Origin: a virus
Lineage: Duplodnaviria; Heunggongvirae; Uroviricota; Caudoviricetes
Length of the DNA: 18,250 nucleotides
Direction: 5' to 3' (one strand)
IMG/VR virus record: IMGVR_UViG_2690315922_000010
Both the position numbers and the translations under genes were made by a program. The notes under the pieces were generated by a model, which ran no database searches, was not told the origin of the DNA, and worked only from the letters and a program-made list of their open reading frames with translations. This document shows positions 410 through 18,250 of the stretch, in pieces; the first letter of the stretch is position 1; each line of letters starts with the position of its first letter.

Positions 410-412
410 AAA

Positions 413-2206: not shown

Positions 2207-2208
2207 TA

Positions 2209-3759: not shown

Positions 3760-4001
3760 CAGCGCAGTACCTCCTGCACCAGTTTTTCAAACTTTCCAAC
3801 TTTGGTTTCCAGCTCTGCCACACAATCAACGAGCTCATCCACCGCTTTTTGTGCGCGATGTTTCGCCTGCATCAGTTCCCTGAGCGCTGGCACCATATCC
3901 CGACGAATGGCATCTTTTGTTACACCTGTTTTTTCCAGTTGTTCCGCCTGTCGCAACATTTCCTGTGCCTGTTTACGTAGTTGTTCAGGGGTAAAAGTCA
4001 T
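3759..4001 (-). CDS. Hypothetical small coiled-coil protein (about 80 aa), nin-region position
   Basis: The ORF track starts at a TTG (4016); I prefer the ATG at 4001 (MTFTPEQLRK...). Charged helical sequence. Its stop overlaps the Q start, and its 5' end abuts the DnaB stop. No clear Shine-Dalgarno. Confidence 0.5.
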   Translation of the reverse strand: MTFTPEQLRKQAQEMLRQAEQLEKTGVTKDAIRRDMVPALRELMQAKHRAQKAVDELVDCVAELETKVGKFEKLVQEVLR

Positions 4002-4012
4002 TGTCTGGTTGT

Positions 4013-5404
4013 TCAAAAGAAACGCTCCATCTTACTGCTGTCAGTTCGTTTGTTGCTGTATCTGCGCGGCTGGGGCTGCTGCATTGGGGTGGAAAGAATC
4101 TGTGCGCTTTCCTGATCCACAGGCAGAAAATGTCCGTTATAAAAACGCCGGTAAATCGTCCCCAGAGAACCGTTACGTTGTTTCGTGATATTGATTTCTG
4201 CTATGCCCCGGGCCTGCGTATCCGGGTTGTACACTTCATCCCTGTAAAGCATCAGAATGATGTCTGCATCCGCCTCTATTTCTCCGGAATTTTTCAGGTC
4301 TGAGTTCATGGGGCGTTTATTGGGTCTGGACTCCACACCACGGGAGAGCTGGCTCAGCGCAATTAAGGGAAAACCACCGGATTTTGCCAGGCCTTTAAGC
4401 CCCTTTGAGATTTCACCCACGGCAAGGTCATGACGCCCCGTGGTTCGGGTTTTTATCAGCCCGAGATAATCAACCACCACCAGCGCCGTTTCCGGATATT
4501 TAATCAGGTGGTGTTTCGTTGTTGCGCATATCTCGTCAATGGTCAGGTTCGCCTGGTCCACCATCCAGATATTGCGCCCGGTCATCCGCCCCACCCCTTG
4601 TGAGAAACGCGCCCAGTCTTCGTCTTCAAAGTGAGCGACAGATTTCAGACGTGATACCGGCATTCCTCCAGCCGCAGATACCATGCGCTCACCAATCTGG
4701 ATGTTCGCCATTTCCATTGTGAACAGAAGAACACCATGCCCCTGCTCAGTCACCTTGTCGATGATATCCAGCGCCAGTTCAGTTTTGCCCATTGACGGAC
4801 GAGCCGCAATAAATACCAGGTCGCCGGGCTCCATGCCGCCTGTTTTTGCGTCCAGTTCATCAATACCGGTCATCAACGTCCTGGATTTCTCCAGCCCCTG
4901 ATTCCGGCATTCAACACGCTCAACCACTTCCGGAAGCACATCATCAATATGTACCGGCTGAATAACGCCCTTTTCCGTCGACAATGAGGCCATCATGTTC
5001 TGCGCATCCTTCAGGGCATCTTCAGCTGCTTCACAGGTATGCGCATCACGTAATTTCTGCAACGCCTCATTCAGCGTCTTTTCTGCATCACGCAGTGCGG
5101 CATTGCGACGCAACGCTGCAACATAGTGCTCCAGTGAAGACTTCACCCAGGTTTTACGCCCGGTATCAGTAATCACCGGAGCAAGTTCCGGCATCTCATT
5201 GCACAGCAGCACAGGATCAATCACACCTGAAACACGAGCCTGTCTGCAGATGCCTGTGTAGATATCCCGATACGCTCGTACAGAAAAAACGTCCGCAGGT
5301 AGTGTGGCCAGAATATCCATCACTTCAGGATCTGCCCCACGCAGAAAGAACGCGCCAATGACAGCGCCTTCCAGGTCATCGTTACGCCAGACTGGTGTTG
5401 TCAT
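4013..5404 (-). CDS. DnaB-family replicative DNA helicase, about 463 aa
   Basis: Walker A AARPSMGKTELAL and other DnaB C-terminal RecA-like motifs (LVFIAARPSMGKT, VVVDYLGLIK, LSQLSRGVESRPNKRP). Start set at ATG 5404, which overlaps the stop of the upstream loader gene (ATGA), rather than the track's GTG at 5512. Confidence 0.9.
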   Translation of the reverse strand: MTTPVWRNDDLEGAVIGAFFLRGADPEVMDILATLPADVFSVRAYRDIYTGICRQARVSGVIDPVLLCNEMPELAPVITDTGRKTWVKSSLEHYVAALRRNAALRDAEKTLNEALQKLRDAHTCEAAEDALKDAQNMMASLSTEKGVIQPVHIDDVLPEVVERVECRNQGLEKSRTLMTGIDELDAKTGGMEPGDLVFIAARPSMGKTELALDIIDKVTEQGHGVLLFTMEMANIQIGERMVSAAGGMPVSRLKSVAHFEDEDWARFSQGVGRMTGRNIWMVDQANLTIDEICATTKHHLIKYPETALVVVDYLGLIKTRTTGRHDLAVGEISKGLKGLAKSGGFPLIALSQLSRGVESRPNKRPMNSDLKNSGEIEADADIILMLYRDEVYNPDTQARGIAEINITKQRNGSLGTIYRRFYNGHFLPVDQESAQILSTPMQQPQPRRYSNKRTDSSKMERFF

Positions 5405-6279
5405 GCAGCCACACCTCTGATACGAGAACGGTAGCTGGGCCAGTTGAACGACAACCAGTTGCGCCCCCCGTCTGTGATCCTGTCGGCAATGCGGGGGCTG
5501 ATGAACGCCCACAACTCTTCCGGTGAAAGGTTGCTGATCAGGATGGTGGGCAGGATACTTTCGTACCGGGCATTGATAATTTCCTGCAAAATAGCCATTT
5601 CAGCCGCGCTGCCAAACTGAACACCAACTTCGTCGATGATCAGCAAATCCATTGACGCATAATGCTCAATAACTTCATCCGCTGTTTTTTCGCTGTCATT
5701 CCGCCAGCAGTTTTTCACAGCACGGGTAAGGCGCATCACGTCGGTGATCTCCACGCTGGCCAGATGATTACGGATGATGTGTTTTGCCATAGCCACAGCC
5801 AGATGATTTTTCCCGGTACCGCAACTGCCAGTCATAACAAGACTGGTGCCGTTCTCCAGCATATCTGGCCAGTTCTCCGCATAGCGGCGACAGGCTGCAA
5901 GATTTCTGGCTGCGTCAGGATTAACCTCCAGATAGTTATCAAACTCACAGTCCCGAAAACGCAGGGCAATTCCGGCGTTATCAGTCAGCTCTTCCGCCTT
6001 GAGGGACGACAGCTCCATGGTCAAATCGTTGGCCTCAGCGATCAAGCAGTCAGGGCAGCATGAAATTTTTTCTCTGTCCTCGCCATTGCGATCGCTCCAC
6101 ACCAGTATATGCGTATGGTATTTACCGTGTTTTTCGCAATACCCGCGACCTTCACGCATCAGGCAGGAACGATAAGGCCATGGCTTTTCGCCCTTCTGAG
6201 CAAATGCAATCTCTGCCCGTAACTCATCCATTCGCGCCTGTAGTCTTGTTTGTTGTTCACGCAGGTTAAACGTCATCAT
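5401..6279 (-). CDS. DnaC/IstB-like AAA+ helicase loader, about 292 aa
   Basis: Walker A GSCGTGKNHLAVAMA and Walker B LLIIDEVG. N-terminal Cys/His-rich segment (CEKHGKYHTH...CCPDC). ATG at 6279 preceded by GAGGTGA; the track start at 6288 is a GTG. Confidence 0.85.
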   Translation of the reverse strand: MMTFNLREQQTRLQARMDELRAEIAFAQKGEKPWPYRSCLMREGRGYCEKHGKYHTHILVWSDRNGEDREKISCCPDCLIAEANDLTMELSSLKAEELTDNAGIALRFRDCEFDNYLEVNPDAARNLAACRRYAENWPDMLENGTSLVMTGSCGTGKNHLAVAMAKHIIRNHLASVEITDVMRLTRAVKNCWRNDSEKTADEVIEHYASMDLLIIDEVGVQFGSAAEMAILQEIINARYESILPTILISNLSPEELWAFISPRIADRITDGGRNWLSFNWPSYRSRIRGVAA

Positions 6280-6289
6280 CGCTGTCACC

Positions 6290-7198
6290 TCAGAATGTCA
6301 ATTTGTCACTGGATTTACCGAATTTGTCAGACATGGCACCAAGGCCAGACAGGACATCGACCTGTCGCTGTCGCCCACCTCCGGGAGCGGCTGGCTGTTG
6401 CCAGAAATCTTCGAAGTGACGATCGGGGCCAAAGAACGTCGCAGCCTGCTTCACGAACTGTGTGCCGGTATTTCCTGTAGCACGTACCCAGGCGGCATAA
6501 CGTCTCACACCATCAAGCATGGTCTCCGGTTTTATTCCCTCCCTGAGACGGGCTTTCCAGGCTTTGAAGGCTGCTGACTTGGAATTGCCACCAGCACGTT
6601 TGGGATATTCCTGCCAGGCCTGTTCAAATTCCGGTGAATATTCCTGTCGGGCAGAACGCGCTGGTGCAGACGCGTCAGCGGATGCGCCAATAGTGTTTTT
6701 ACTCTCTGTAGTATTCTCTGAAGTAATCTCTGTTGTATTCTCTGTAAGATCGAAATTGGTTTTCCCTTCTCCGCGGCGAGGGGTTTCCCGTGTCCGCGGT
6801 GAAGGCTTGCCCTCCTCCGCGAAATTGGGTTTTACAGTTTCCCGAAAACGGGTTTCCCCATTTCGGGAAAACTGATTGTTTTCATTGATAATTTCATTAA
6901 GGCGCTCACAATCTATACGGTAGAACATTTTGTGCTCAAGACGCTTGTTGGTTTCAACCAAAATGCCTCTGGACACAAGATGCTTACGCGCTACAGCCTG
7001 TTGTTCAAATGTAAGTCCGGTTTCGTGTTGTATCTCTTCACGCGTTTTATGTACGCCTTCCGCTGCATGTGCTTTATCCTGCCAGTAAAAAATCTGACCA
7101 AAGAAAATAACAGCGTGCGGACTTCCCATGTATTTAACGAGCCCAGGGTAATAAGCAACCGGATGCCCAAAATCGAGCAGAAGATCAGACGGACGCAT
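6290..7198 (-). CDS. Replication initiator / replisome organiser (lambda O analogue), about 302 aa
   Basis: Immediately upstream of the loader and helicase genes. ATG at 7198 preceded by GGGAGGTGG. The mid-region encodes a repetitive peptide (TENTTEITSENTTESKNT) over tandem DNA iterons, as in lambda O/ori. Family assignment is by position and architecture. Confidence 0.75.
   Translation of the reverse strand: MRPSDLLLDFGHPVAYYPGLVKYMGSPHAVIFFGQIFYWQDKAHAAEGVHKTREEIQHETGLTFEQQAVARKHLVSRGILVETNKRLEHKMFYRIDCERLNEIINENNQFSRNGETRFRETVKPNFAEEGKPSPRTRETPRRGEGKTNFDLTENTTEITSENTTESKNTIGASADASAPARSARQEYSPEFEQAWQEYPKRAGGNSKSAAFKAWKARLREGIKPETMLDGVRRYAAWVRATGNTGTQFVKQAATFFGPDRHFEDFWQQPAAPGGGRQRQVDVLSGLGAMSDKFGKSSDKLTF
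6703..6870. repeat. Origin-like iteron array inside the initiator gene
   Basis: Four tandem 12-bp repeats starting at 6703, 6715, 6727 and 6739 (TCTCTGTAGTAT, TCTCTGAAGTAA, TCTCTGTTGTAT, TCTCTGTAAGAT). Downstream are GGKTTTCCC repeats (about 6768, 6781, 6850) and an inverted repeat TTCCCGAAAA...TTTCGGGAAA (about 6839-6872). Confidence 0.6.
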
Positions 7199-7418
7199 AG
7201 CCACCTCCCAGACGCTTAAACATTTTCCCGGACTGAAAAGCCACCAGCGGATAACTCAGGGTATGAGTACGTCCCTGAACCTGGCAGACAACCTTCTGGC
7301 TTTCTGTATTGACCAGGCAAACCCGCAGAACGTGGCCGTTGCTGGTGGTGAACCACTGCCCCACACGGGGGCAACGGTTGTATCGGTGATACAAGGAATT
7401 AACGACGCGGCGAATCAT
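7185..7418 (-). CDS. Hypothetical protein, 77 aa
   Basis: ATG at 7418 preceded by GGGAGGT and overlapping the stop of the upstream gene (ATGA). Basic and Cys-containing. The track start at 7433 gives a slightly longer form. Confidence 0.55.
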   Translation of the reverse strand: MIRRVVNSLYHRYNRCPRVGQWFTTSNGHVLRVCLVNTESQKVVCQVQGRTHTLSYPLVAFQSGKMFKRLGGGYASV

Positions 7419-8077
7419 GGGCGCACCTCCCATTGATTACGGCGGAAAGCGGTGTGACTGAGACTGGTTTCAGTTTCATGGAATGCTTCAATGCAGCTCT
7501 CGTAGTACCGCATTGTGCGCAGACTTAACCCAAGCTGAAGCATCATCAGGCCATCAAGGGTGATGTAATAACCACGCAGGGAGTCACCATAGATGTGATA
7601 AGTACCCGGTATGAAATTGCGGGTAAAAAATTCGCGCGAGCAGTTCAGATACTCGATTTTGTCGACGATGTTCTGGTGCATGCGCTTGAAATGGCAGGCA
7701 ACATGCAGGGAGAAAATAACGGCCTTGCCGTTGACGACTTCGATTTTCAGGTATGGGGAAGTTGGGACTGTAGCCATGATGGCAGCCTCCGATAACAGTG
7801 AATTACCTTCACCACCGGAAACGCCAATTTCGCTGGTGGTGAACTGAACGGGGTTGGCGTAACCGGCGTTATCGGAAACCGGCGCACCTTTCGGTGCCCC
7901 CGTCCAGCCCACCATAATTTGGGTGTGCGCAGACGCAGACGATAAAAAAGACGCTGGCGCGTCATATATCGCCGATAACATTTCCAGGACGCCAATCCCG
8001 GCACCCGCTTTATAAGGTGCTTGGACAGTGTACCGTCCCGAAATTGCAGAATCAATATTTAGGCTTGAAACATTCAT
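7415..8077 (-). CDS. Hypothetical protein, 220 aa, no recognisable domain
   Basis: Longest ORF in the interval and translationally coupled to the downstream 77-aa gene. Weak ribosome-binding site at its own start, so the start is uncertain. Confidence 0.5.
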   Translation of the reverse strand: MNVSSLNIDSAISGRYTVQAPYKAGAGIGVLEMLSAIYDAPASFLSSASAHTQIMVGWTGAPKGAPVSDNAGYANPVQFTTSEIGVSGGEGNSLLSEAAIMATVPTSPYLKIEVVNGKAVIFSLHVACHFKRMHQNIVDKIEYLNCSREFFTRNFIPGTYHIYGDSLRGYYITLDGLMMLQLGLSLRTMRYYESCIEAFHETETSLSHTAFRRNQWEVRP

Positions 8078-8155
8078 ATGCTTACTGGTATTTTTGTTAA
8101 CGTTCTTGGATTCTTGGGCCTGCTTTATGCAGTTGCCTGTATCAACGTTGAGCGA

Positions 8156-8180
8156 GCCGGGTCACTACCCGGCTTTTTTT
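8156..8180 (+). terminator. Canonical intrinsic terminator, plus-strand polarity
   Basis: GCCGGGT (8156-8162), loop CACT, ACCCGGC (8167-8173), then TTTTTTT (8174-8180). On the minus strand the hairpin follows the Rha stop but has no U-tract. Confidence 0.45.
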
Positions 8181-8893
8181 CACCGCTGCCAGCCAATAAC
8201 CTGAAATAACCCCATTTTCGGGTGATACCAGCGAGTCCCTCGCGGTTCTGCTTCCTCCATAACCCGATAAAAAGCAGCCATAAACGGTTCCACGGCAACA
8301 ATTGCGCGACGTGATAACAATCCGTCCGGCGTCATAAACTCGTGGGTATCTGTAGGAATTTGATAAGCGTTCACCAGATTGCGGCATTTATCATCTGACA
8401 AACCGGTTTTTGCTTTCAGTTGGCGATATCCGGCATAGCCCTCACGAATAGTGCCCTTTTTGATTTGCTCGACTGTTTCAGCAACGTGGCTGACTTTTTC
8501 TTCCACCTGAGTGATCCGTTTCTGCTGGCGAACAGCTTCAAGAGCCATTGCAGCAACCATTTCGATTTCGCTCATTGGCTTACGGATCTGTTCTTCCAGT
8601 TCGCGCCAGCGATCTACCAGGCGGGCTGTGAATTCGGGGCAAAGCTGAGCGACAACAATGATGCTGTCGCGTTTGCCTCGTTCACCTTCGAAAAGATAAT
8701 GCTTACTTTTTTGAGTTAAACCTAACCCATTGATATTTTCAGAAATCCCCATTGGGGGAAGCTGAATAATCCTTCTTTCAGCAAGGCGCTCAATGGATTG
8801 TTTAACTTTGTCATGGCGGCTGCCCACCAGCTCTGCGATTTCAACACTGGTCATGGATGCTTTGCCGTTAAAAATTGCGGTGTTCACTGCCAT
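8180..8893 (-). CDS. Rha-family phage regulatory protein, about 237 aa
   Basis: N-terminus MAVNTAIFNGKASMTSVEIAELVGSRHDKVKQSIERL is typical of the Rha (PF09669-like) domain. ATG at 8893 preceded by TAAGGAG; the track's upstream extension is rejected. Confidence 0.75.
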   Translation of the reverse strand: MAVNTAIFNGKASMTSVEIAELVGSRHDKVKQSIERLAERRIIQLPPMGISENINGLGLTQKSKHYLFEGERGKRDSIIVVAQLCPEFTARLVDRWRELEEQIRKPMSEIEMVAAMALEAVRQQKRITQVEEKVSHVAETVEQIKKGTIREGYAGYRQLKAKTGLSDDKCRNLVNAYQIPTDTHEFMTPDGLLSRRAIVAVEPFMAAFYRVMEEAEPRGTRWYHPKMGLFQVIGWQR

Positions 8894-9006
8894 CTCCTTA
8901 CGGATAAATTCTTTTAAAATTCCGCACATTCGTACTTGTTGGTGCCGAACCTTCCTTTAGTTATCCTTTTGATCCCTATAAACAAAAGAACCAAAGGAGG
9001 TTCGAC

Positions 9007-9258
9007 ATGTCACAAAAAAACGATATTCCTGTTTTTCCTATTACAGCCTGGCAGGCTGGACCATTGCCCGGTTATGGTGCGCTAGCATTAAAATTCCAGT
9101 ACCTGGCTTCCCCTATGCAACCACTGGATTCAGCACAAGAAACTCAGTTCTTCGCGCTTACTCCCGAAATGGCTGAGACTTTGATCTCCGATCTGCGCCG
9201 ACATATTGAGACGCTGAAAAAATCCGGTATTCACAGCCCACAAGAAAACAGGCATTAA
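9007..9258 (+). CDS. Hypothetical protein, 83 aa
   Basis: ATG preceded by AAAGGAGG with ideal spacing. Divergent from Rha and followed by a hairpin terminator. No recognisable domain. Confidence 0.6.
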   Translation: MSQKNDIPVFPITAWQAGPLPGYGALALKFQYLASPMQPLDSAQETQFFALTPEMAETLISDLRRHIETLKKSGIHSPQENRH

Positions 9259-9289
9259 TCGAAAACACGGTTGCCACATAATTTCTTGA

Positions 9290-9322
9290 AAAGCGTCGCG
9301 CACTGGCGCTTTTCATTTCTCT
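9290..9322. terminator. Hairpin terminator between convergent genes (possibly bidirectional)
   Basis: GAAAAGCG (9290-9297) pairs with CGCTTTTC (9308-9315), followed by a T-rich tract on the plus strand. Lies between the 3' ends of the 9007-9258 gene and the cro-like gene. Confidence 0.45.
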
Positions 9323-9342
9323 ACGATCAACAAGCATGCACT

Positions 9343-9588
9343 TCACTTCACCTCCCCCGTACGCGCTAAGCTTGGATGTGGAAAAAGCTCTGGTAGGTCT
9401 GGACGAAATTCATACGCTTGGATCTTTCCGTCGACAGCTGCAACCAATAACGGCACAAATTCTGGTGAAATCTTGTTCTTGCAGTTCAACCAATCGCAGA
9501 CTGTTGACTGGGCCTTTCCGCATCGCTTGGCTAAGGCTTGCTGACTTCCAAGAATCTCAATAGCTTTCTCTATGGCTTTATGTTTCAT
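9343..9588 (-). CDS. Cro/YdaS-like helix-turn-helix regulator, about 81 aa
   Basis: MKHKAIEKAIEILGSQQALAKRCGKAQSTVCDWLN... has a YdaS/Cro-type HTH pattern. Divergent from the CI-like repressor. ATG at 9588 preceded by AGGAGA. Confidence 0.75.
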   Translation of the reverse strand: MKHKAIEKAIEILGSQQALAKRCGKAQSTVCDWLNCKNKISPEFVPLLVAAVDGKIQAYEFRPDLPELFPHPSLARTGEVK

Positions 9589-9610
9589 AATCGCATCTCC
9601 TATTGAACGC

Positions 9611-9639
9611 ATAATAACAACAGGAAAAGCGATATTCAA
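9611..9639 (-). promoter_or_regulatory. pR-like sigma70 promoter for the cro-like/early-right operon
   Basis: Read on the minus strand: TTGAAT (plus 9634-9639), 17-nt spacer, TATTAT (plus 9611-9616). Predicted start about 20 nt upstream of the cro-like ribosome-binding site. Confidence 0.5.
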
Positions 9640-9655
9640 CGTTAAACCTAGAATA

Positions 9656-9675
9656 TTTATCGGAAAGCCGATAAA
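9656..9675. promoter_or_regulatory. Candidate operator palindrome in the cI/cro intergenic region
   Basis: TTTATCGG-AAAG-CCGATAAA, perfect 8-bp arms. Adjacent to a pRM-like -10 (TAGAAT, 9649-9654). Related half-site motifs (CGATAAAC) recur near the downstream pL-like promoter. Confidence 0.4.
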
Positions 9676-9707
9676 CTAGCCAAGATAGAGAGGGGAGGAA
9701 AATCGCA

Positions 9708-10400
9708 ATGACATTTTCAGAACGACTTGATTTAGCTATGCGCAACGCAAAATTTACGCAAGGTAGGCTGGCCAAAGAAGTGGGTATGGCTCAGTCCAGT
9801 GTTAATCAACTACTTAACAAAGCCAACGGTTCCAGAAAAACAGTCGAAATAGCAAAAGTTTTGGGCGTTAACCCGGAATGGCTCGCATCGGGTGTTGGTC
9901 CAATGGAAATCGTGACCTCTGCAGACTCACACCAAATACGTAACATTTCTGAAGATTGGGTTACTGATTCGTATGTCGTGGATGTTTTAGACATCAGATA
10001 TAGTTGCGGACCTGGTAGTTATAACTCTGATTTTCCTGACATTGTCAGATCTATAGCGATAGAACCAGGATACGCATCAAGAGTTTTTGGCGGCAGACCA
10101 GCATCAGCAATCAAAGCAATAAACGCCCACGGCGACAGTATGAAAGGCACAATAGACCCTGAAGACTTGGTATTTGTAGATGTATCAGTTCGCACATTTA
10201 ATGGTGATGGTATATACGCCTTTACATACTCTGGAACATCGCACATCAAAAGACTTCAAAAAATCAAAGATACTCTAACGGTGATATCTGACAACCCAGC
10301 TTACAAGGATTGGGCTATCGAACCGGAAGACTTCGAACAACTTCACATTGACGGAAAAGTAATTGTCAGTTGGCCTATGACACTACACCGTTTTGCATAA
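9708..10400 (+). CDS. cI: CI-like prophage repressor (XRE HTH N-domain + S24 LexA-like peptidase C-domain), 230 aa
   Basis: N-terminal HTH (LAKEVGMAQSSVNQLLN). C-terminal autoproteolysis domain with the GDSM motif (Ser nucleophile) and a downstream Lys. AGGGGAGGA ribosome-binding site. Divergent from cro-like. Confidence 0.9.
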   Translation: MTFSERLDLAMRNAKFTQGRLAKEVGMAQSSVNQLLNKANGSRKTVEIAKVLGVNPEWLASGVGPMEIVTSADSHQIRNISEDWVTDSYVVDVLDIRYSCGPGSYNSDFPDIVRSIAIEPGYASRVFGGRPASAIKAINAHGDSMKGTIDPEDLVFVDVSVRTFNGDGIYAFTYSGTSHIKRLQKIKDTLTVISDNPAYKDWAIEPEDFEQLHIDGKVIVSWPMTLHRFA

Positions 10401-10418
10401 GCAAAAATCATTTAACCC

Positions 10419-10444
10419 GCCCACTCTTAAGTGGGCTTTTTTTT
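10419..10444 (+). terminator. Intrinsic terminator after cI
   Basis: GCCCACT (10419-10425), loop CTTAA, GTGGGC (10431-10436), then TTTTTTTT (10437-10444). Confidence 0.6.
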
Positions 10445-10467
10445 GGAAAAAAAAATCGATAAACCGA

Positions 10468-10496
10468 TTGACAGGCGAAATCGGTAAACCTATTAT
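10468..10496 (+). promoter_or_regulatory. pL-like sigma70 promoter for the early-left operon
   Basis: TTGACA (10468-10473), 17-nt spacer, TATTAT (10491-10496). Flanked by direct repeats ATCGATAAACC (10455-10465) and ATCGGTAAACC (10480-10490), which resemble the operator half-sites. Confidence 0.55.
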
Positions 10497-10545
10497 CTTG
10501 ACATAGGTATCGAACTCACCAAAGCAATTATAGAGGATGAGAAAA

Positions 10546-11043
10546 ATGTCATCGTATATGGGATTACCAACAAATCAGCACGATGCTCTTGAGAATATTC
10601 AGCTCTTAGTAGGGGCTGGTGCACTACTGTATAGCAGCAATAACCCTGAGTTAATTGAACTTGCCAGCTCCATCCTGGCTGTAACTCAAAAATATAGCCT
10701 CACCGCGTCACGTTTATGCAAACAAAATTTAGCTATTAATTCCCAGAATCGGATTCGCACCCAACGCGAAGCCTGCGGCTTAACAACCGCCGAACTCGCC
10801 AGGCTGCTCGAACTCGATGAAGAAATCATCATTCAGTGGGAGAGTGGAGAGTATGAACCAACCATCAGTATGCTTATCCCACTGGCTAATGTTCTTGGCT
10901 GCGATCCGATGTGGCTGTTAACTGGCGAGGTTACTCCTCCGGAGCAACCAAAAAGTGAGGAGCAGCAACACCATGACGCATCTCAACAAGTTTGCTCCTT
11001 ATCTCGCGAAGCTCTTCTACGGAAGAACCAATACCAATGGTGA
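10546..11043 (+). CDS. XRE-family HTH protein with about 70-aa N-terminal extension, about 165 aa
   Basis: ATG at 10546 preceded by AGAGGA; the track start is at 10537. HTH segment TQREACGLTTAELARLLELDEEIIIQWESGEYEPTISMLIPLANVLGCDPMWLL. First gene downstream of the pL-like promoter. The C-terminal tail may be shorter than the ORF. Confidence 0.6.
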   Translation: MSSYMGLPTNQHDALENIQLLVGAGALLYSSNNPELIELASSILAVTQKYSLTASRLCKQNLAINSQNRIRTQREACGLTTAELARLLELDEEIIIQWESGEYEPTISMLIPLANVLGCDPMWLLTGEVTPPEQPKSEEQQHHDASQQVCSLSREALLRKNQYQW

Positions 11044-11171
11044 CATAATCGCCGCTTCGCCCCTCAAGGTACATGCGAACATTTTTATCAATCATTGCGG
11101 AAACAGTCTCAATATGAAAACACTTCTGAGACTCGCTATATAGCAGAACATATAAGTCAGCTGAGGAAGCC

Positions 11172-11537
11172 ATGAAAAAGTTCGAAAACATAACTGTTCT
11201 CCATGTTGATGACTTTGATTATACAAACCCGAAACTTCTCCCGAAGGTTGTAAAGGCAATAGATGTTGCCGATATAGTGATTAGAGGAAAGAGAATTGTC
11301 AAAAACAGGCTCGCATGCACTTCAGGAGCAATGACAGAAACAACCTCACAACAAGATGATTATGAAGGCATTTGTCTGGAGCCTGATTCATTTGCGGTAA
11401 ATGTTTATCATTTATTGCATGCAACACAGGTATTACATATGTCAAGTAATCACGAAACAAAAACACTTGGCAGCGAAATTCTGAATTTTGCATGTGAATA
11501 TGCAAAAGCTGCTGCCGAAAAAGAATTAGCGCAATAA
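11172..11537 (+). CDS. Hypothetical protein, 121 aa
   Basis: ATG preceded by GAGGAA. AT-rich. No recognisable domain. Confidence 0.6.
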   Translation: MKKFENITVLHVDDFDYTNPKLLPKVVKAIDVADIVIRGKRIVKNRLACTSGAMTETTSQQDDYEGICLEPDSFAVNVYHLLHATQVLHMSSNHETKTLGSEILNFACEYAKAAAEKELAQ

Positions 11538-11615
11538 CAATAAATATTCCCTGAATGTTTATTACGGTTTTATCGCCGGAGATTGTTGCAACCTTTATTC
11601 GCAGGAGATTATGTT

Positions 11616-11729
11616 ATGACTTTCCTGAAACATAAGGCATCGTATAAAACTGCCTGCCTCATTGCACAACATGGAGATTCTTATCTTCATATAGCCAACC
11701 TGTATTTGCGCAAAGCATATGGGAGATAA
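11616..11729 (+). CDS. Possible small protein, 37 aa
   Basis: ATG preceded by AGGAGA at ideal spacing. Stop lies within the ribosome-binding site of the next gene. Not in the ORF track because it is below the length cut-off. Confidence 0.3.
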   Translation: MTFLKHKASYKTACLIAQHGDSYLHIANLYLRKAYGR

Positions 11730-11733
11730 GTCA

Positions 11734-11922
11734 ATGGAAGAAAAACAACAAAACATAACACATAAAAAAGTAAGAGTGTTGCTAACCATTGAAAATGGTG
11801 AAGTAATTTACTCAAAACATCTGTTGGATAGTGAATTCGTTGGCTGCATGGATACATTTCTGTGGATGGCAAAAAGAGCTGGCTACACGATTATTCCACC
11901 AGCAAAGGAGCAAACATTATGA
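11734..11922 (+). CDS. Hypothetical protein, about 62 aa
   Basis: ATG at 11734 preceded by GGGAGA; the track start is at 11719. Stop overlaps the next gene's start (ATGA). Confidence 0.5.
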   Translation: MEEKQQNITHKKVRVLLTIENGEVIYSKHLLDSEFVGCMDTFLWMAKRAGYTIIPPAKEQTL

Positions 11923-12500
11923 ATCATTCAGAGTTCCGACCAGAAGTTACTCCACATGGCATAAAAATTGGCAATACAACCATTGATTATGTTGAAGCTG
12001 TGCGGCGTCTTAATGATGGTGAATACGATTATCCAAATTCACGCGGTTTAAGAATCCTTCAGTGCCTTGCCGAAGCTGATGATGCCGGATTGCTGGGGAA
12101 ATTTTCCATCGATATGAAGGTTGCACAATGGCGCTGGCTGTATGTAACGATATTTATAAACGAAGAGGAATATAAGAACGGCACCATTGATATCTCGAAC
12201 GAAAACGGAACTACAGGTCGCGCAGTTATTTATAAAGGGAAATATGGTTGTATGGGTATCTACCCGGGACCAATTCGCATTGCCCTGCAAAACCATGTCG
12301 AATGGGGATTTATTGAAAAATATGGTGAAGATGAAGGTATGGGGCGAGTTCTGTTTCTCTATCAAAAAATGCTCATCGCAGATCCTGATAATGGTTTCAT
12401 TGTTTCTGCTATGGGACGCGAAGGGCTTGAACTCCTTCTGGATGAAATGATTAACGACCTGAATACTCATGGTATGCCAGAAGCGCCAGTGACACATTAA
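11919..12500 (+). CDS. Hypothetical protein, about 193 aa
   Basis: ATG at 11919 preceded by AAGGAG and coupled to the upstream gene. The track's longer N-terminus is rejected. No recognisable domain. Confidence 0.65.
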   Translation: MNHSEFRPEVTPHGIKIGNTTIDYVEAVRRLNDGEYDYPNSRGLRILQCLAEADDAGLLGKFSIDMKVAQWRWLYVTIFINEEEYKNGTIDISNENGTTGRAVIYKGKYGCMGIYPGPIRIALQNHVEWGFIEKYGEDEGMGRVLFLYQKMLIADPDNGFIVSAMGREGLELLLDEMINDLNTHGMPEAPVTH

Positions 12501-12546
12501 ATATTAAGAAGAAAATAATTCTTCCAGTTTTTTACTAACCGTTTAT

Positions 12547-12654
12547 ATGAAAAGCAACCGTGAATTAAACAGAGTAAAACTGATTTTAATCCTTGCCACA
12601 GTGGTGACACTAACTGAAATTATTATTCTCTTTATTGCGCTGTCAGTCGGTTAA
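12547..12654 (+). CDS. Possible small hydrophobic peptide, 35 aa (single transmembrane helix)
   Basis: MKSNRELNRVKLILILATVVTLTEIIILFIALSVG. No clear Shine-Dalgarno. Below the track cut-off. Confidence 0.3.
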   Translation: MKSNRELNRVKLILILATVVTLTEIIILFIALSVG

Positions 12655-12677
12655 AAATATCGGGATACCACAGACCA

Positions 12678-12866
12678 ATGAGACTGTATTTCACAATAGT
12701 AATTTTACTGGCAATTATCGCATGCATTTACGGATTACTCGTTCCGTTCCTTATATCCATGAAGGATACGATAGCAGTTATTTCTGGCTTTGCACTGGCG
12801 TTTCTGACCCCGCCCTGCATTTATGCCATTTACAAGGGTCTTTCTTTCACTAAGGATAAAAGATGA
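12678..12866 (+). CDS. Small membrane protein, 62 aa (two predicted transmembrane helices)
   Basis: Two hydrophobic helices. Stop overlaps the start of the SPFH gene (ATGA), suggesting co-translation with it. Confidence 0.5.
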   Translation: MRLYFTIVILLAIIACIYGLLVPFLISMKDTIAVISGFALAFLTPPCIYAIYKGLSFTKDKR

Positions 12867-13690
12867 AAAAAATTATTTTTGCTTTAGCCATTGTTCTGCC
12901 GACTATTGGCCTCGTCGGTTGCGATCGCGTTGAACCAGGTAATGTTGGCATCAAGGTAAATAAACTGGGCGACGACAAAGGCGTCGGTGAGGTGGTCGGT
13001 GTTGGTCGCTACTGGACAGGCTGGAACACTGAAGTTTATATCTTCCCGACCTTTAAGCAGATGAAGACCTACGATGATCCATTCAGTTTCCAGATGAGCG
13101 ATGGAACAACCATTGGTTACCACATCGGAGTAGCCTACAAAGTTGATCCATCCAAAGTTACCACGGTGTTTCAAACCTACCGCAAAGGTGTGGATGACAT
13201 TACCGACACCGACCTGCGCCAGAAGATAGCAGATGCACTAAATCGGCTGGCCAGCAAAATGACCACCGACAAATTTATCGACGGCGGCAAGTCTGAGCTG
13301 CTGGATGCAGCTCTAAAAGATATTCAGGCAGAAATGACGCCCATCGGTATTCAGGTAATGAGCCTGTCTTATGTAGGTAAACCGGAGTACCCGCCAACCG
13401 TTATCGACAGCATTAACGCCAAAGTCACGGCAAACCAGAAAACCCTGCAACGCGAGCAGGAAGTAAAACAGCGCGAAGCGGAAGCCAACATGTTGCGTGC
13501 GGAGGCTGCCGGACAGGCAGATGCAATTCGCACAAAAGCTCAGGCCGAAGCCGATGCTATTCGTTTACGCGGTGAAGCTCTGCGCCAGAACCCCGGTGTT
13601 ATGGAGCTGGAAGCCATCAATAAATGGAACGGCACACTGCCGCAATACATGACCAGCGGTGCCAATACACCATTTATCCAGGTTAAATAA
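12863..13690 (+). CDS. SPFH/Band-7 (stomatin/HflK/C-like) lipoprotein, 275 aa
   Basis: Signal peptide with lipobox LVGC. Band-7 core followed by an Ala/Glu/Gln-rich coiled coil (QREQEVKQREAEANMLRAEAAGQADAIRTKAQAEADAIRLRGEA). AAGGA ribosome-binding site. Confidence 0.85.
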   Translation: MKKIIFALAIVLPTIGLVGCDRVEPGNVGIKVNKLGDDKGVGEVVGVGRYWTGWNTEVYIFPTFKQMKTYDDPFSFQMSDGTTIGYHIGVAYKVDPSKVTTVFQTYRKGVDDITDTDLRQKIADALNRLASKMTTDKFIDGGKSELLDAALKDIQAEMTPIGIQVMSLSYVGKPEYPPTVIDSINAKVTANQKTLQREQEVKQREAEANMLRAEAAGQADAIRTKAQAEADAIRLRGEALRQNPGVMELEAINKWNGTLPQYMTSGANTPFIQVK

Positions 13691-13730
13691 CTTATATGCC
13701 CGGCAGGCCGCCGGGCTAAGGGAAAAGCAG

Positions 13731-14090
13731 ATGAACACCCATAATGCCCAACCGCAAATAATGAACTATGACCCGAATCTGACGTCATGCGGACGCATGG
13801 CAAAACAAACCGTTCGATTAACTTTCGGGTTATGGGAATACCGCGAAACATTCGAAGTCACTGTCGGTGGCAACCTGACCGGACTCGATGTTATCAGTTG
13901 CGCTATTGAAAGCCTGTACGCAACGCTGCCTTATGAAGAAGTCGAGGATGAGCGCGATATCATCGCCACCATTAATATCGGCGGCGTGAAATGCAAGGAT
14001 GAAAACTTGATCGGAGAACTCTGGCTTGCCGGGATGCTTATCTCTGCAGAAATTATCAGTATTGAACCCGCTACAAACATACCGCTCTGA
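13731..14090 (+). CDS. Hypothetical protein, about 119 aa
   Basis: ATG at 13731 preceded by AAGGGA; the track start at 13659 is rejected because it overlaps the SPFH gene. Confidence 0.6.
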   Translation: MNTHNAQPQIMNYDPNLTSCGRMAKQTVRLTFGLWEYRETFEVTVGGNLTGLDVISCAIESLYATLPYEEVEDERDIIATINIGGVKCKDENLIGELWLAGMLISAEIISIEPATNIPL

Positions 14091-14121
14091 AGTTCTCACA
14101 ACTCAGGGAACAGGAGAAAAA

Positions 14122-14364
14122 ATGTTCGCTTTGATTAATCAAGGGCAACTGTATACCGACAGTGCCGGTTACCCGGTAAAAATTATTCGCTGCATAAATA
14201 ACATCGTGTTGTACAGAAGAATGGATGGGCGAACACAGTCGGTAAAAATAAACGATTTTAATGAACTGTTTGAACGGATCGCTCACCAGGAATACCGACA
14301 AATTCTGGCAGAAACAGAGCAGGAAGCTCATCTGAAAAAATTACGAGCCATGAAAAGGAAGTAA
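14122..14364 (+). CDS. Hypothetical small protein, about 80 aa
   Basis: ATG at 14122 preceded by AGGAGA. Typical small lambdoid early-left gene. Confidence 0.6.
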   Translation: MFALINQGQLYTDSAGYPVKIIRCINNIVLYRRMDGRTQSVKINDFNELFERIAHQEYRQILAETEQEAHLKKLRAMKRK

Positions 14365-14367
14365 AGA

Positions 14368-14514
14368 ATGAATAAAGCATTTGAACGATGGGTCCACCAG
14401 CGTTACGGCAATCGCTATGACCTGACACGAGATGTCGACGGTTTCTACTGTCGTGAAATTGTGAAACGAATGTTTGAAGTGTGGTGCCACTGCCGCGGAC
14501 TGAGTGTTGTGTGA
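14368..14514 (+). CDS. Possible small protein, 48 aa
   Basis: ATG preceded by AAAGGAAG, 3 nt after the upstream stop. Cys/His-containing. Below the track cut-off. Confidence 0.4.
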   Translation: MNKAFERWVHQRYGNRYDLTRDVDGFYCREIVKRMFEVWCHCRGLSVV

Positions 14515-14521
14515 GGGAAAT

Positions 14522-14758
14522 ATGGGGAATGTGATTCAACTGGCTCCCAATGAATGGGTGTGTGAAAGCGTTCTTATCGCGATTACCGGACTCAAACCAG
14601 GCACAATTCTTCGGGCCCGGAAAGAATGCTGGATGGTTGGAAAAGAGTATATTCACGTATCACCAGACGGTAATCCAAAGCCTTCCAGCGAGTGTATGTA
14701 TAACAGAAAAGCAATAGATGCTTGGGTCGCTTCAATGAAAAACAAACAACCTGGGTGA
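14522..14758 (+). CDS. Excisionase-like protein, about 78 aa
   Basis: Immediately upstream of int. ATG at 14522 preceded by GAGGGA. Small basic protein with a W/R-rich DNA-binding-like region. Assignment is by position and size. Confidence 0.6.
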   Translation: MGNVIQLAPNEWVCESVLIAITGLKPGTILRARKECWMVGKEYIHVSPDGNPKPSSECMYNRKAIDAWVASMKNKQPG

Positions 14759-14813
14759 TTTAATGCCATGAAGTATGTAATCTCGTATCGCTCTTGGGCG
14801 TCTGGAGGTATCA

Positions 14814-16127
14814 ATGGATAAAGTCAAATATCCAACAGGCGTCGAAAACCACGGCGGCACATTACGCATCTGGTTTAATTTTAAAGGTAAACGTGTCAGG
14901 GAAAATCTTGGTGTCCCTGACACTGCCAAGAACAGGAAGATCGCCGGGGAACTACGGACATCGGTATGTTTTGCCATCCGCACAGGAAGCTTTGATTATG
15001 CTGCACAGTTCCCTGACTCCCCTAACCTTCAGGCTTTTGGGGTAAGTAAAAAAGAAATTACGGTGAAAGAACTTGAAGAAAAATGGCTGGATCTGAAACG
15101 AATGGAAATCTCTGCAAATGCATTCAATCGCTATGAATCCGTTGCAAGAACGATGGTTCCGAAAATTGGAGGCAGCAGACTGGTGTCATCGGTAACTAAA
15201 GAGGAATTGCTGTATATCAGGAAAGATTTGCTGACCGGGTATCAGAATCCAACGAAAAACAAAGCAGCAGCAAAAGGACGGAGCGTCGTTACTGTAAATT
15301 ATTACATGACGACAATCGCTGGAATGTTTCAGTTTGCTGCAGATCACGGTTACTTAGAAGCAAATCCCTTCCAGGGAATTAAGCCTCTTAAAAGAGCCAG
15401 GGCAGAGCCAGATCCGCTAACTCGTGACGAATTTATTCGCCTGATAGATGCTTGCCGACATCAGCAGACGAAAAACCTGTGGTCATTGGCTGTGTACACA
15501 GGAATGCGTCACGGTGAACTGGTCTCCCTGGCCTGGGAAGATATCGATCTGAAAGCAGGAACTATTACTATCAGGCGCAATTATACGAAACTCGGTGAGT
15601 TCACTCTACCTAAAACTGAAGCAAGTACAAACAGGGTTGTGCATCTTATCCAGCCCGCTATCAGTGTCCTGAAAAATCAGGCTGAAATGACAAGACTGGG
15701 TAAGCAGCACCACATCAAGGTTCAACTACGTGAATATGGGCGTTCAGTGAATCATGAATGTACTTTCGTATTTAACCCCCAGGTGGTTAGAAAAAGCAAA
15801 CAGGTCGGTTTTATCTACAAGGTAGATTCTATTGGCGACTCATGGGAAACAGCCATTAAGCGTGCGGGCATCAGGCACCGGAAAGCATACCAGTCACGAC
15901 ACACTTATGCGTGCTGGTCGTTATCTGCCGGAGCAAATCCAAGCTTCATTGCCAGCCAGATGGGCCATGCAAGTGCCCAGATGGTGTTCAATGTATACGG
16001 AGCATGGATGACTGACAGTAATGCAGAACAGATCGCAATGCTGAATCAGAAGCTGGCAGATTATGTCCCAATGATGCCCCATAGTCACCAAAATGGCACA
16101 AAAGGCTTATTAAAATCAGTAAGTTAA
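14814..16127 (+). CDS. int: Tyrosine integrase (lambda Int-like, IntR/IntE-type N-terminal arm-binding domain), 437 aa
   Basis: GGAGG ribosome-binding site. N-terminus PTGVENHGGTLRIWFNFKGKRVRE...GSFDYAAQFPDSP is typical of E. coli lambdoid integrases. C-terminal catalytic region has conserved Arg, His-x-x-Arg (SRHTYA) and Tyr. Last gene before the host junction. Confidence 0.9.
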   Translation: MDKVKYPTGVENHGGTLRIWFNFKGKRVRENLGVPDTAKNRKIAGELRTSVCFAIRTGSFDYAAQFPDSPNLQAFGVSKKEITVKELEEKWLDLKRMEISANAFNRYESVARTMVPKIGGSRLVSSVTKEELLYIRKDLLTGYQNPTKNKAAAKGRSVVTVNYYMTTIAGMFQFAADHGYLEANPFQGIKPLKRARAEPDPLTRDEFIRLIDACRHQQTKNLWSLAVYTGMRHGELVSLAWEDIDLKAGTITIRRNYTKLGEFTLPKTEASTNRVVHLIQPAISVLKNQAEMTRLGKQHHIKVQLREYGRSVNHECTFVFNPQVVRKSKQVGFIYKVDSIGDSWETAIKRAGIRHRKAYQSRHTYACWSLSAGANPSFIASQMGHASAQMVFNVYGAWMTDSNAEQIAMLNQKLADYVPMMPHSHQNGTKGLLKSVS

Positions 16128-16136
16128 TCCTTAATA

Positions 16137-16555
16137 CCCGTCATGTTAACTGCGTAGAGGGCAACACTACTCTGTATGCACTGCCGAAAGCGGAAGTTGT
16201 GCTGCGCTGGCGTGAGCAAACCAGCGACGATTTCCGTTTTTGTTTTAAGTTCCCGGCAACTATTTCGCATCAGGCTGCATTACGTCATTGCGACGATTTA
16301 GTGACAGAGTTTTTCACCCGTATGTCGCCGCTGGCACCACGCATTGGGCAATTCTGGCTGCAATTACCCGCTACCTTCGGTCCACGGGATCTGCCTGCGC
16401 TTTGGCATTTTCTCGATACTCTACCTGGCGAGTTTACCTACGGTGTGGAAGTTCGCCATCCGCTATTTTTTGCCAAAGGGGAAGAAGAACAAACGCTTAA
16501 TCGCGGCTTGCATCAACGTGGCGTTAATAGGGTAATACTAATCAGACACGTTTAA
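16137..16555 (+). pseudogene. yecE: Internal fragment of host DUF72 gene (yecE-like), disrupted at both ends
   Basis: The open frame reads ...NCVEGNTTLYALPKAEVVLRWREQTSDDFRFCFKFPATISHQ...NRGLHQRGVNRVIL with no ATG start (the track uses a GTG at 16199). My recollection of E. coli YecE matches from about residue 30 to about 165. Upstream it runs into the int stop region and downstream it diverges into a stop. Confidence 0.6.
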
Positions 16556-16605
16556 ATACACCATCCAAAGCGATACAATCACACTATTAGTTTTTTATGG
16601 TGTAT
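16556..16605. repeat. Perfect 9-bp inverted repeat upstream of the serine recombinase gene (candidate att or regulatory site)
   Basis: ATACACCAT (16556-16564) and ATGGTGTAT (16597-16605), flanking 32 bp of AT-rich DNA. Lies at the point where the yecE-like frame is lost. Confidence 0.5.
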
Positions 16606-16610
16606 AAACT

Positions 16611-18134
16611 ATGAAACGTGCAATCAGTTACATCCGATTCAGTTCTGAGAAGCAATCCCGAGGTGATTCACTACGCCGACAATCGAAGTTGGTCACTGAC
16701 TGGCTTAAAGCTCGTCCTGAGTATCATCTAGATGAATCTCTTACCTTCCGTGATTTGGGGAAAAGTGCTTTTAGCGGTAAGCACTTGAAAGGTGGCTTAG
16801 GCGACTTCTTAACCGCTATTGAGAAAGGGCTTGTAAGAGCTGGTGATACGCTCTTGATAGAGTCTCTTGACCGTCTGTCACGGCAAGATGTAGACCGAGC
16901 AAGTGAACTACTCAGAAACATCCTTCGCTCTGGTGTCGATGTGGTCACATTATCCGATAATGAACACTACACAAAGGAATCTCTTAAAGACCCGTTAGCC
17001 TTGATTAAGTCAATCCTGATTATGCAACGAGCGCATGAGGAAAGTTTGAGGAAGTCTGAGCGTATACAGGCTGCATGGGATGCAAAGAAAGAAGCCGCTA
17101 AAGCTGGTATCAAGATTTCTAAGCGTTGCCCTGCATGGCTTAAGCTTAATAATGACCGTAAAAGTTTCTCTGTAATCCCTGAGAAGGTAGCGACGGTAAA
17201 GCGATGCTTCCAGCTACGGTTAGAGGGTAAGTCTATCTTGGAAATTGTCAGAACTCTTAATAGTGAGGGACATCAGACGCTTAACCAGTACAAAGCGGGT
17301 AAATTTAGTCAGACTTCTGTGCAAGACCTTTTGAAGAATCGCTCTGTAATTGGTTATTTCACCCCCAAAGGCTGTGAAGAAATTTCAAACTATTACCCCT
17401 CTATCATCCCTGAGACTGATTTCTACAAAGTCCAGCAACTATCATATCCTCGTTACGGTAGAAAACCTGCTTCAGATAAACCATTGAGTGTGAATCTTTT
17501 CAAGGGTGTTATCCGTTGTTCTGAATGTGGTCATGCTCTGATTATCACAGGCTTTAGCGATACAAGGAACGGGATATATCGCTGCCCTCTTCGTAATGAA
17601 AACCGTTGCAGTGCTAAGGGTCTGTCACGTAAGCAAACTGATGGAACATTACTTGCTTTGCTCTCTCGTCTTGACCGATTTGAGAATGGTACAACGAATG
17701 CCATTGATACACTGAAGCTACACCGTGAACACATTTCAAACAATATTGAGAAGCTGGTACAACTCTCACTTGAAGTCGAAGACCTGACCGCTATTACCAG
17801 CAAGTTAAAACAGTTAAAGGGGGAGTTATCACAGGTTGATGCTGATATTGAGAAGGAGGCACAACGCCTTAAATCTATTGACGTGGGTTGTTTGTCTGAT
17901 TGTGACTTGAGTACAAAGGCGGGAAGGATTGAAGCACAACTGATTATTCGTAGTGCTGTTAAAGAAGTTGTTTTAAACACTGCTAAACGTCGCTGTAGAG
18001 TAACTTTTCACAATGGCAAGGTGATTGACCTGTCGATAACAGAAAACCCCGCTCAGGACATTACAGAGGCTGAAAAGTCGCTTACTGAAATTGCTGAGAA
18101 GGGTCTGTTAGATGTTGACGCCTTCCAACTGTAG
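16611..18134 (+). CDS. Large serine recombinase (serine integrase), 507 aa
   Basis: N-terminal resolvase-type catalytic domain (AISYIRFSSEKQSRGDSLRRQ with Ser nucleophile, LIESLDRLSR). Recombinase domain, Cys-rich zinc-ribbon (CSECGH...YRCPLRNENRC) and C-terminal coiled coil. Confidence 0.9.
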   Translation: MKRAISYIRFSSEKQSRGDSLRRQSKLVTDWLKARPEYHLDESLTFRDLGKSAFSGKHLKGGLGDFLTAIEKGLVRAGDTLLIESLDRLSRQDVDRASELLRNILRSGVDVVTLSDNEHYTKESLKDPLALIKSILIMQRAHEESLRKSERIQAAWDAKKEAAKAGIKISKRCPAWLKLNNDRKSFSVIPEKVATVKRCFQLRLEGKSILEIVRTLNSEGHQTLNQYKAGKFSQTSVQDLLKNRSVIGYFTPKGCEEISNYYPSIIPETDFYKVQQLSYPRYGRKPASDKPLSVNLFKGVIRCSECGHALIITGFSDTRNGIYRCPLRNENRCSAKGLSRKQTDGTLLALLSRLDRFENGTTNAIDTLKLHREHISNNIEKLVQLSLEVEDLTAITSKLKQLKGELSQVDADIEKEAQRLKSIDVGCLSDCDLSTKAGRIEAQLIIRSAVKEVVLNTAKRRCRVTFHNGKVIDLSITENPAQDITEAEKSLTEIAEKGLLDVDAFQL

Positions 18135-18141
18135 ATAAGTC

Positions 18142-18168
18142 AGGGGCTTCATGGCCCCTTCCTTCTTT
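18142..18168 (+). terminator. Intrinsic terminator after the recombinase gene
   Basis: AGGGGC (18142-18147), loop TTCATG, GCCCCT (18154-18159), followed by a T-rich tract TCCTTCTTT. Confidence 0.5.
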
Positions 18169-18250
18169 AGTAAGTGCCACGCTTATTAGGGTTCACAGAG
18201 TATTTCCGCAGAGCATTACCTGCCTTGAGTACCTTTTCAGCACCTGAATT

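Follow-up and report, generated by a model that had tools for sequence, protein, structure and literature searches.

Integration of phiP27-type and Stx phages in yecE is textbook knowledge in STEC typing. The att sequence at yecE was reported as 5'-CAYGCAGTTAA-3' (PMC5592225), and the Stx phages of O145:H28 were found to duplicate a 21-bp att at the same spot of the gene (PMC8112680). The prophages residing in ompW carry attB-in-PP_1, a 100-bp yecE-like attB (Nakamura et al. 2021, PMC8112680). The window analyzed in this study, namely the whole stretch of 18,250 nucleotides, is the entire contig BBVO01000033.1 of the assembly GCA_001514765.1, in which a fragment of yecE lies between the int-side end of a phiP27-type prophage and a second element bearing a large serine recombinase. 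We regard it as well founded, with a probability of about 0.95, that two unrelated mobile elements integrated site-specifically at two att sites within the yecE gene of the host. In the scenario proposed here, the canonical attB at yecE nt 86-96 would have received a lambdoid prophage whose tyrosine integrase is of the phiP27 type, and a second attB, with its centre at yecE nt ~479, would have received an element of ~11 kb with a large serine recombinase. The gene would thereby be in three pieces, with nt 1-96 adjoining the outer end of the prophage, nt 86-479 in the window, and nt 480-819 beyond the element, and would be inactivated by this split. For this particular strain, the three-piece layout is what the sister contigs and the closed E. 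coli genomes lead us to expect.

Gene-splitting elements with serine integrases are well known, and the present finding adds a new case to known kinds of ordinary mobile-element biology. Our survey of the literature retrieved no description of the serine-recombinase element or of a double occupancy of yecE; the second yecE attB and the double occupancy are apparently undescribed. The serine-recombinase element is the more unusual part of the finding than the split yecE itself.

The yecE fragment and its host

The reading frame at 16127-16555 matched the Pfam family DUF72 (PF01904) with an E-value of 9e-34 and a score of 117.9 bits (against a cut-off of 25.3), and the match covered positions 16-138 of the 217 in the profile. 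The initial annotation had taken this frame for the middle of a DUF72/YecE-like protein; a frame devoid of DUF72/yecE similarity, which it had considered as the opposite outcome, was not what we found. The comparison with an uninterrupted yecE that it had proposed was made with two sequences, the gene of E. coli K-12 and that of the same species in L003. The latter is a sister contig with the order aspS, yecD, the 5' part of yecE, and the serine-recombinase element, and served as the same-species reference for yecE. Both alignments delimited the internal fragment of the host yecE (DUF72) to 16146-16539 on the plus strand. These 394 nt correspond to nt 86-479 of the 819 in yecE, or to about codons 29-160 of 272, and both termini of the YecE-like frame are indeed absent, as had been proposed. 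The frame is only a piece of the gene and not a full-length, functional member of DUF72.

The span given earlier, 16128-16610, does contain the yecE fragment, but its limits had to be trimmed on both sides. Positions 16128-16145 are the DNA of the phage attP arm and lie outside the yecE-derived part, and positions 16540-16610 belong to the P' arm of the serine-recombinase element. The stop codon of the yecE frame (16553-16555) is located 14 nt beyond the crossover.

Between the fragment and the yecE of L003, 389 of the 394 nt were identical (5 mismatches, 98.7%). The nucleotide identity to the K-12 yecE was 84.5% for the fragment and 85.6% for the whole reconstructed yecE of L003. Judging from these alignments, the segment 16146-16539 stems from the yecE of the chromosome itself, of which it makes up the middle third. 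As for the identity of the host, the housekeeping genes on a sister contig were 90-95% identical to those of all 5,426 closed E. coli genomes, and the cluster 99% identical to the serine recombinase in the window bears the name 'recombinase family protein [Escherichia albertii]'. Thus, the host is a non-coli member of Escherichia, and these sequence comparisons make it almost certainly E. albertii.

The two att sites and their recombinases

According to the Pfam scans and the gene table, positions 1-16145 comprise the early/regulatory half of a lambdoid prophage. The genes detected there encode a Q antiterminator, a DnaB-type helicase, a DnaC/IstB-like loader, Rha/Ash regulators, an S24 LexA/CI-type repressor, and an SPFH protein, followed by xis and int, and their order matches that in the yecE prophages of E. 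coli SCU-387 and JNEC-KY173. The window covers the int-side end of the prophage, and the opposite end lies outside it. The excisionase gene (DUF1233/PF06806) at 14522-14758 (plus strand; 7912-8148 in L006, which is the same contig with coordinates smaller by 6610) is situated directly upstream of int, and the phiP27 record annotates an equivalent xis-int pair. The latter gene (14814-16127, plus strand) encodes a phiP27-type tyrosine integrase of 437 aa with the Pfam domains Arm-DNA-bind_2 and Phage_integrase. The amino acid identity of this integrase was 96.1% to phiP27 Int and 97.7% to the Int of phage PhiR49_2, and its gene was 96-98% identical at the nucleotide level to the int genes of E. 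coli yecE prophages.

Alignment to intact yecE and to the phiP27 att placed the int-proximal attachment junction of the prophage at 16136-16156 (plus strand). The att core TTAACTGCGT at 16146-16155 is preceded by the imperfect yecE-like bases CCCGTCATG, and the identity to intact yecE begins at 16146. The 11th base of the core is A, not G, in the window, as it is in the uninterrupted yecE of the same species. The phiP27 record AJ298298 annotates an 11-bp attL/attR that reads TTAACTGCGTG on the int-coding strand, and the yecE-like sequence in the phiP27 genome comprises this 11-bp core and ~10 imperfect bases only. As judged from the alignments, the left junction lies at the yecE attB that is canonical for integrases of this family (yecE nt 86-96; core TTAACTGCGTR). 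A related Int with an adjacent excisionase and a junction at the core CAYGCAGTTAA assign the prophage to the phiP27-type module. No stx is visible in the window, and nothing there marks the prophage as an stx carrier.

Just downstream of Q, two genes at 1031-3423 (plus strand) are opposed to late transcription. One of them encodes a protein of 391 aa belonging to the NA37 (YejK-like nucleoid-associated) family, and the other encodes a protein of 404 aa for which no match was found in Pfam or PADLOC. The slot downstream of Q holds stx or defence cargo in related prophages, and a DUF262 protein and a HEPN nuclease are found at the corresponding slot in E. coli SCU-387. The PADLOC scan of the prophage cargo and of the proteins of the serine-recombinase element yielded no defence system, the only match being homing-endonuclease-like.

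On the other side of the fragment, the gene at 16611-18134 (plus strand) encodes a large serine recombinase of 507 aa, the predicted integrase of the ~11 kb element, in which the Pfam domains Resolvase (PF00239), Recombinase (PF07508), and Zn_ribbon_recom (PF13408) were identified. Its N-terminus, MKRAISYIRFSSEKQ, contains SYIRFSSEKQ at residues 6-15, the YxRxS context of the catalytic serine. The gene and the following 116 nt are 100% identical at the nucleotide level to the copy in L003. The attL of the element was assigned to 16515-16565 (plus strand) by comparing attL and attR at five loci. The strand exchange falls inside TAATACT at 16533-16539, which is common to attL and attR, and this comparison places the crossover most likely at the CT dinucleotide at 16538-16539. 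With a slash separating the half-sites, the attL reads …GGGTAATACT/AATCAGACACG… and the attR of L003 reads …GACCTTGATAATACT/GGACAGCCGCC…, from which we predicted the attB to be GGGTAATACT/GGACAGCC and the attP to be GATAATACT/AATCAGACACG. The empty attB in K-12 is GGGTGATTTT/AGACAGCC, and the copies of the element in E. coli cross over at the identical position. In silico removal of 10,990 bp from L003 produced an uninterrupted yecE of 819 nt and 272 codons. The reconstructed attP shows imperfect dyad symmetry, with GTGyATTTArAC on both arms, and such predicted symmetry is typical of serine-integrase sites. Altogether, the recombinase belongs to the serine integrases by its serine motif, its three domains, and the combination of attL and attR that restores attB and gives attP.

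These two junctions bear out what the initial annotation had stated about the surroundings of the fragment. The N-terminal break, said to abut a tyrosine-integrase prophage, coincides with the phiP27 att core next to an Int 96% identical to that of phiP27. The statement that yecE is a known integration site of Stx-type lambdoid phages agrees with the att in AJ298298 and with the literature (PMC5592225; PMC8112680). The C-terminal divergence, described as lying just before an inverted repeat and a serine recombinase gene, corresponds to the attL with its crossover at 16533-16539, and excision restores yecE.

The P' arm contains a putative regulatory region of the recombinase gene at 16551-16605 (plus strand), proposed from a consensus match. 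It comprises a promoter-like site, TTTAAA-17-TACAAT, at 16551-16579, which matches the consensus and may serve as the promoter, and an inverted repeat of 14 nt (16556-16569 and 16592-16605; 86% complementary), the one already pointed out in the initial annotation. Beyond the recombinase gene, a terminator-like hairpin at 18142-18159 (plus strand), likewise recognized from a consensus match only, lies between two convergent genes. The second of these is represented by the last 27 codons of a Dit-like/tail-tube-initiator-like gene (18167-18250, minus strand), which was recognized by its identity to L003 and is cut by the contig end. The short-read assemblies of related E. albertii (L005, L008, L009, and L010) break 60-145 nt past the stop codon of the recombinase, and their break points fall within the tube-initiator-like gene, as does the end of the window at 18250. 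That several independent assemblies break inside this gene suggests that it is repeated elsewhere in those genomes, for instance as part of a second element or of a related phage.

Independence of the two integrations

The two elements were found separately as well as together. The serine-recombinase element alone, with the 5' part of yecE intact, was detected in the E. albertii-type contigs L003, L004, and L007 as well as in two E. coli genomes, O157:H7 Rafaela_II and Z0117EC0032; L015 and L016 are likewise loci with this element alone. O104:H4 and many other genomes have only the prophage with a phiP27-type Int. Double occupancy was found in at least 11 closed E. coli genomes, in which the variants of the element differ (83-86% identity to the query), and in Citrobacter freundii. 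Rough counts among the matches listed gave no sign that the co-occurrence of the two elements is enriched. The two attB sites are ~385 bp apart, so that the occupation of one leaves the other usable.

The complete arrangement can be followed in the closed genome of E. coli JNEC-KY173, which displays yecD, yecE nt 1-96, a prophage of ~41 kb, int, the middle of yecE, the element, the 3' part of yecE, and yecN in this order. A second att core is present at the far end of this prophage, next to yecD and yecE nt 1-96. E. coli SCU-387 (NZ_CP051688; L018/L001) was rejected as a model of the outer prophage end, as the far end of its yecE prophage abuts potB, not yecD, and JNEC-KY173 was used instead. 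SCU-387 probably experienced a large chromosomal rearrangement by recombination between prophages, and its potB junction indicates that prophage-mediated rearrangements can scramble the outer pieces of yecE.

The three segments around the two junctions differ in their divergence. When the window is compared with E. coli, the identity amounts to 96-98% for int, 84-85% for the middle of yecE, and 84-86% for the recombinase gene. The middle of yecE in the E. coli genomes with the same layout is 98% identical to that of K-12, and the corresponding piece in Citrobacter is Citrobacter-like, with 76% identity to K-12. These values point to discordant histories of int, the yecE piece, and the recombinase gene.

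The initial annotation had raised the alternative that one element carries the yecE fragment. In this case, the yecE-like fragment would be cargo, for example a decoy attB, and the second element would have integrated into the first. A precedent exists in the ompW prophages, which have a 100-bp stretch 87% identical to yecE that is the attB for yecE-type phages (PMC8112680), and the fragment in the window, only about 85% identical to the E. coli yecE, is superficially alike. However, ~85% is the divergence between the yecE genes of E. albertii and E. coli, as the value of 85.6% to K-12 for the whole gene tells, and the fragment is nearly identical (98.7%) to a same-species yecE that is contiguous with yecD. 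Furthermore, genomes of E. coli and Citrobacter arranged in this way carry fragments that are E. coli-like (98%) and Citrobacter-like, respectively, the ends of the phiP27 genome possess merely the 11-bp core, and the attP-bearing copy of the serine-recombinase element (see below) contains no yecE. As the fragment is always the resident chromosome's own, and follows the host species where the flanking elements do not, we reject its carriage by an element as highly improbable. The recurrence of the order int, fragment, and recombinase in E. albertii, E. coli, and C. freundii could also be expected if the prophage, the fragment, and the serine-recombinase element were a single composite unit acquired at once. 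This proposal is equally hard to sustain, because each half occurs alone at its own att site, the intervening piece is always the yecE of the resident species, the divergence is discordant (96-98% for int versus 84-86% for the recombinase gene), and the variants of the element paired with the prophage differ among genomes.

The least probable of the explanations, which we consider practically negligible, is that the juxtaposition of int, the fragment, and the recombinase gene is a chimera in the assembly of a draft genome. The window comprises a complete contig assembled from short reads, which breaks off within the gene next to the recombinase gene, 116 nt past the latter, and several assemblies of related runs end near the same place. 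Nevertheless, the identical junctions were found in two NCBI assemblies, three independent Logan assemblies, and no fewer than 11 E. coli chromosomes closed with long reads, as well as in one C. freundii genome.

We therefore retain two independent integrations into one host gene, as had been proposed at the outset: each element is also found alone, which makes the insertions independent and speaks against a carried fragment, the predicted excision is precise, and the fragment tracks the host. The spacing estimated earlier, about 400 bp, was right in its order of size and is refined here to about 385-390 bp between the crossover points, the 394 bp of the fragment including the duplicated core. 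We infer that both recombinases are currently active and that both elements are able to excise in this strain.

The serine-recombinase element and known systems

The region of the recombinase matched 282-297 of the 5,426 closed E. coli genomes (about 5%), and it adjoins a DUF72 fragment in nearly all matches listed and at every locus inspected. Nine loci in IMG/VR carry the recombinase, and a search of genome contigs for the recombinase retrieved two partial loci only. The window contains 16540-18250 of the element, of which a full copy is available at L003:9930-20919. In the E. albertii copy, the recombinase is followed by a Dit_like protein of 256 aa (its gene complete in L003 and assigned to Pfam Dit_like), a tape measure protein of 687 aa, six small/unknown proteins, a weak replication-initiator-like protein, a Dam methylase, and a small invertase. 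The Pfam, PHROG, and NCBIfam scans of the element proteins detected no capsid, portal, terminase, sheath, or tube gene; matches were restricted to the recombinase, Dit_like, the tape measure protein, Dam, the invertase, and the weak replication initiator, and NCBIfam added nothing for the small proteins. Across five copies of the element, the gene lengths are conserved and dN/dS ranges from 0.07 to 0.34, even at protein identities of 45-55%, which argues against a decaying remnant.

The attP pattern was searched for in metagenomes and found in one contig (L031; ERZ1090866 NODE-760, 11,473 bp) at 2943-2981. In this contig, the element is circularly permuted, with the right end joined to the left end, the main ORFs intact, and no yecE. 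L031 represents a related variant of the element, not the strain of the window; its ends do not overlap and bear Nextera adapter sequence, so the closure of a circle is not proven. Such an arrangement would mark an excised element in circular or concatemeric form. The same search among the viral contigs of IMG/VR gave no match.

Two more distant recombinases were noticed. In the enterobacterial sequence CP027618.1 (L036, 9600-21160), a recombinase with 51% identity interrupts yecE at about nt 477-529, and the cargo of that element is unrelated, with neither a tape measure nor a Dit_like gene. E. coli 2785200 (L035) possesses a recombinase with 64% identity in an element of ~4 kb at a different locus, near an lpxL-like gene. 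Thus, the recombinase clade is broader than the elements bearing a tape measure gene. Identity of the O157:H7 element with SpLE2 of Sakai was considered and rejected, as SpLE2 lies between cobU and yeeB, near sbcB.

The Dit_like protein of the element is 75-82% identical to the product of the gene after the tape measure gene in virulent FelixO1-like phages. In the E. coli copies, the Dit_like gene is up to 92% identical to the phage gene over ~540 nt, a stretch that corresponds to the tube-like N-terminal part of the initiator; divergence is strong in the C-terminal part and in the tape measure, the latter being about 28% identical at the amino acid level to its FelixO1-like counterpart. In a cryo-EM study of Bas63, gp18 is the tail-tube initiator (PMC12609058), and the gene order suggests that the Dit_like gene of the element corresponds to Bas63 gp18. 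Furthermore, some copies share a non-coding stretch of ~60-100 nt with the FelixO1-like intergenic region upstream of a DUF5681 gene (L020:25640-25735, L031:1520-1640, and partially L003 near 19258-19290; 24700-24830 in phage SP116, NC_027329). This stretch reads TTGACAAGGT…GATATC-N7-GATATCTATCTTTTATCTTAAAAG, sits upstream of the Dam gene in the element, and could be a common promoter, operator, or packaging signal.

With its tape-measure and initiator genes under purifying selection, the element is a candidate for a phage satellite or for an element directed against phages. It is conceivable, albeit rather improbable in our estimation, that the element represents an undescribed family of 11-13 kb in Escherichia and Citrobacter that parasitises or blocks virulent FelixO1-like myoviruses. 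The features behind this possibility are the intact homologues of the tape measure and the tube initiator, the replication-initiator-like gene, the non-coding motif of ~60 nt in common with a FelixO1-like intergenic region, and the attP-bearing copy free of yecE. If so, the element would hijack the tails of the helper or poison the nucleation of the tail tube. Our search of the literature on Felixounavirus satellites found nothing describing this element.

At the level of the locus, yecE, which is used in typing the insertion of Stx phages, has two independent att sites ~385 bp apart, and both can be filled at the same time in E. albertii, E. coli, and Citrobacter. As the element is present in about 5% of the closed E. 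coli genomes, PCR or in silico assays that score yecE as occupied or intact for Stx phages may be confounded, and annotation pipelines will list two or three DUF72 pseudogenes in place of one gene. The element also supplies a natural large serine integrase of Enterobacteriaceae with attB, attP, attL, and attR defined by sequence comparison. FelixO1-like phages are widely used in the biocontrol of Salmonella and E. coli, and if the link to these phages is functional, the element would be a new satellite or defence element against them.

Among the described systems, the prophage in the window resembles phiP27, a Stx2e phage, and the other yecE-integrating Stx or lambdoid prophages of E. coli O26:H11, O145:H28, and O157 in the integrase family, the xis-int order, and the place of attB, and its Int is 76% identical at the amino acid level to the IntR of the O145:H28 Stx phage. 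It differs from the phiP27/Stx prophages of E. coli in that the host is E. albertii and the attB reads TTAACTGCGTA, and in that the window shows no stx and no late genes, with two reverse-oriented genes downstream of Q. Like attB-in-PP_1 of the ompW prophages, the piece in the window is a yecE-like sequence beside a prophage with a phiP27/yecE-type integrase. In contrast to attB-in-PP_1, which is ~100 bp long, prophage-borne, and 87% identical to the host yecE, the piece in the window is 394 bp long, is the host's own (98.7%), and resides in the native yecD-yecN locus.

The recombinase shares the Resolvase, Recombinase, and zinc ribbon domains with the large serine integrases of phiC31, Bxb1, A118, and SPbeta and with the integrase of the Vibrio cholerae PLE. 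The int gene beside attP, the short att sites with imperfect dyad symmetry around a central crossover, and the predicted precise integration into and excision from a protein-coding gene are further likenesses. Recombination directionality factors are not known to share a sequence signature. Among phage-encoded proteins, the nearest relative is YbcK-like, comes from lambda-like phages, and shows an identity of only 35%, and unlike the large serine integrases of phages, the recombinase moves an element of 11-13 kb that lacks capsid, portal, terminase, sheath, and tube genes.

The marker genes of the four satellite families P4-like, PICI, cf-PICI, and PLE (for example psu, delta, sid, and alpha of P4; alpA, pri-rep, and terS of PICI; the capsid module of cf-PICI) were not found in the Pfam, PHROG, and NCBIfam scans. 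In contrast to satellites, the element bears homologues of the tape measure and the tube initiator instead of genes for capsid remodelling or packaging. In common with these satellites, it is small (11-13 kb), encodes an integrase of its own and, by a weak match, a replication initiator, is devoid of most virion genes, has sequence in common with one particular group of phages, and was found in an attP-bearing copy without host DNA. If the element parasitises or blocks FelixO1-like phages, the two would be the enterobacterial counterpart of the Vibrio PLE-ICP1 relationship.
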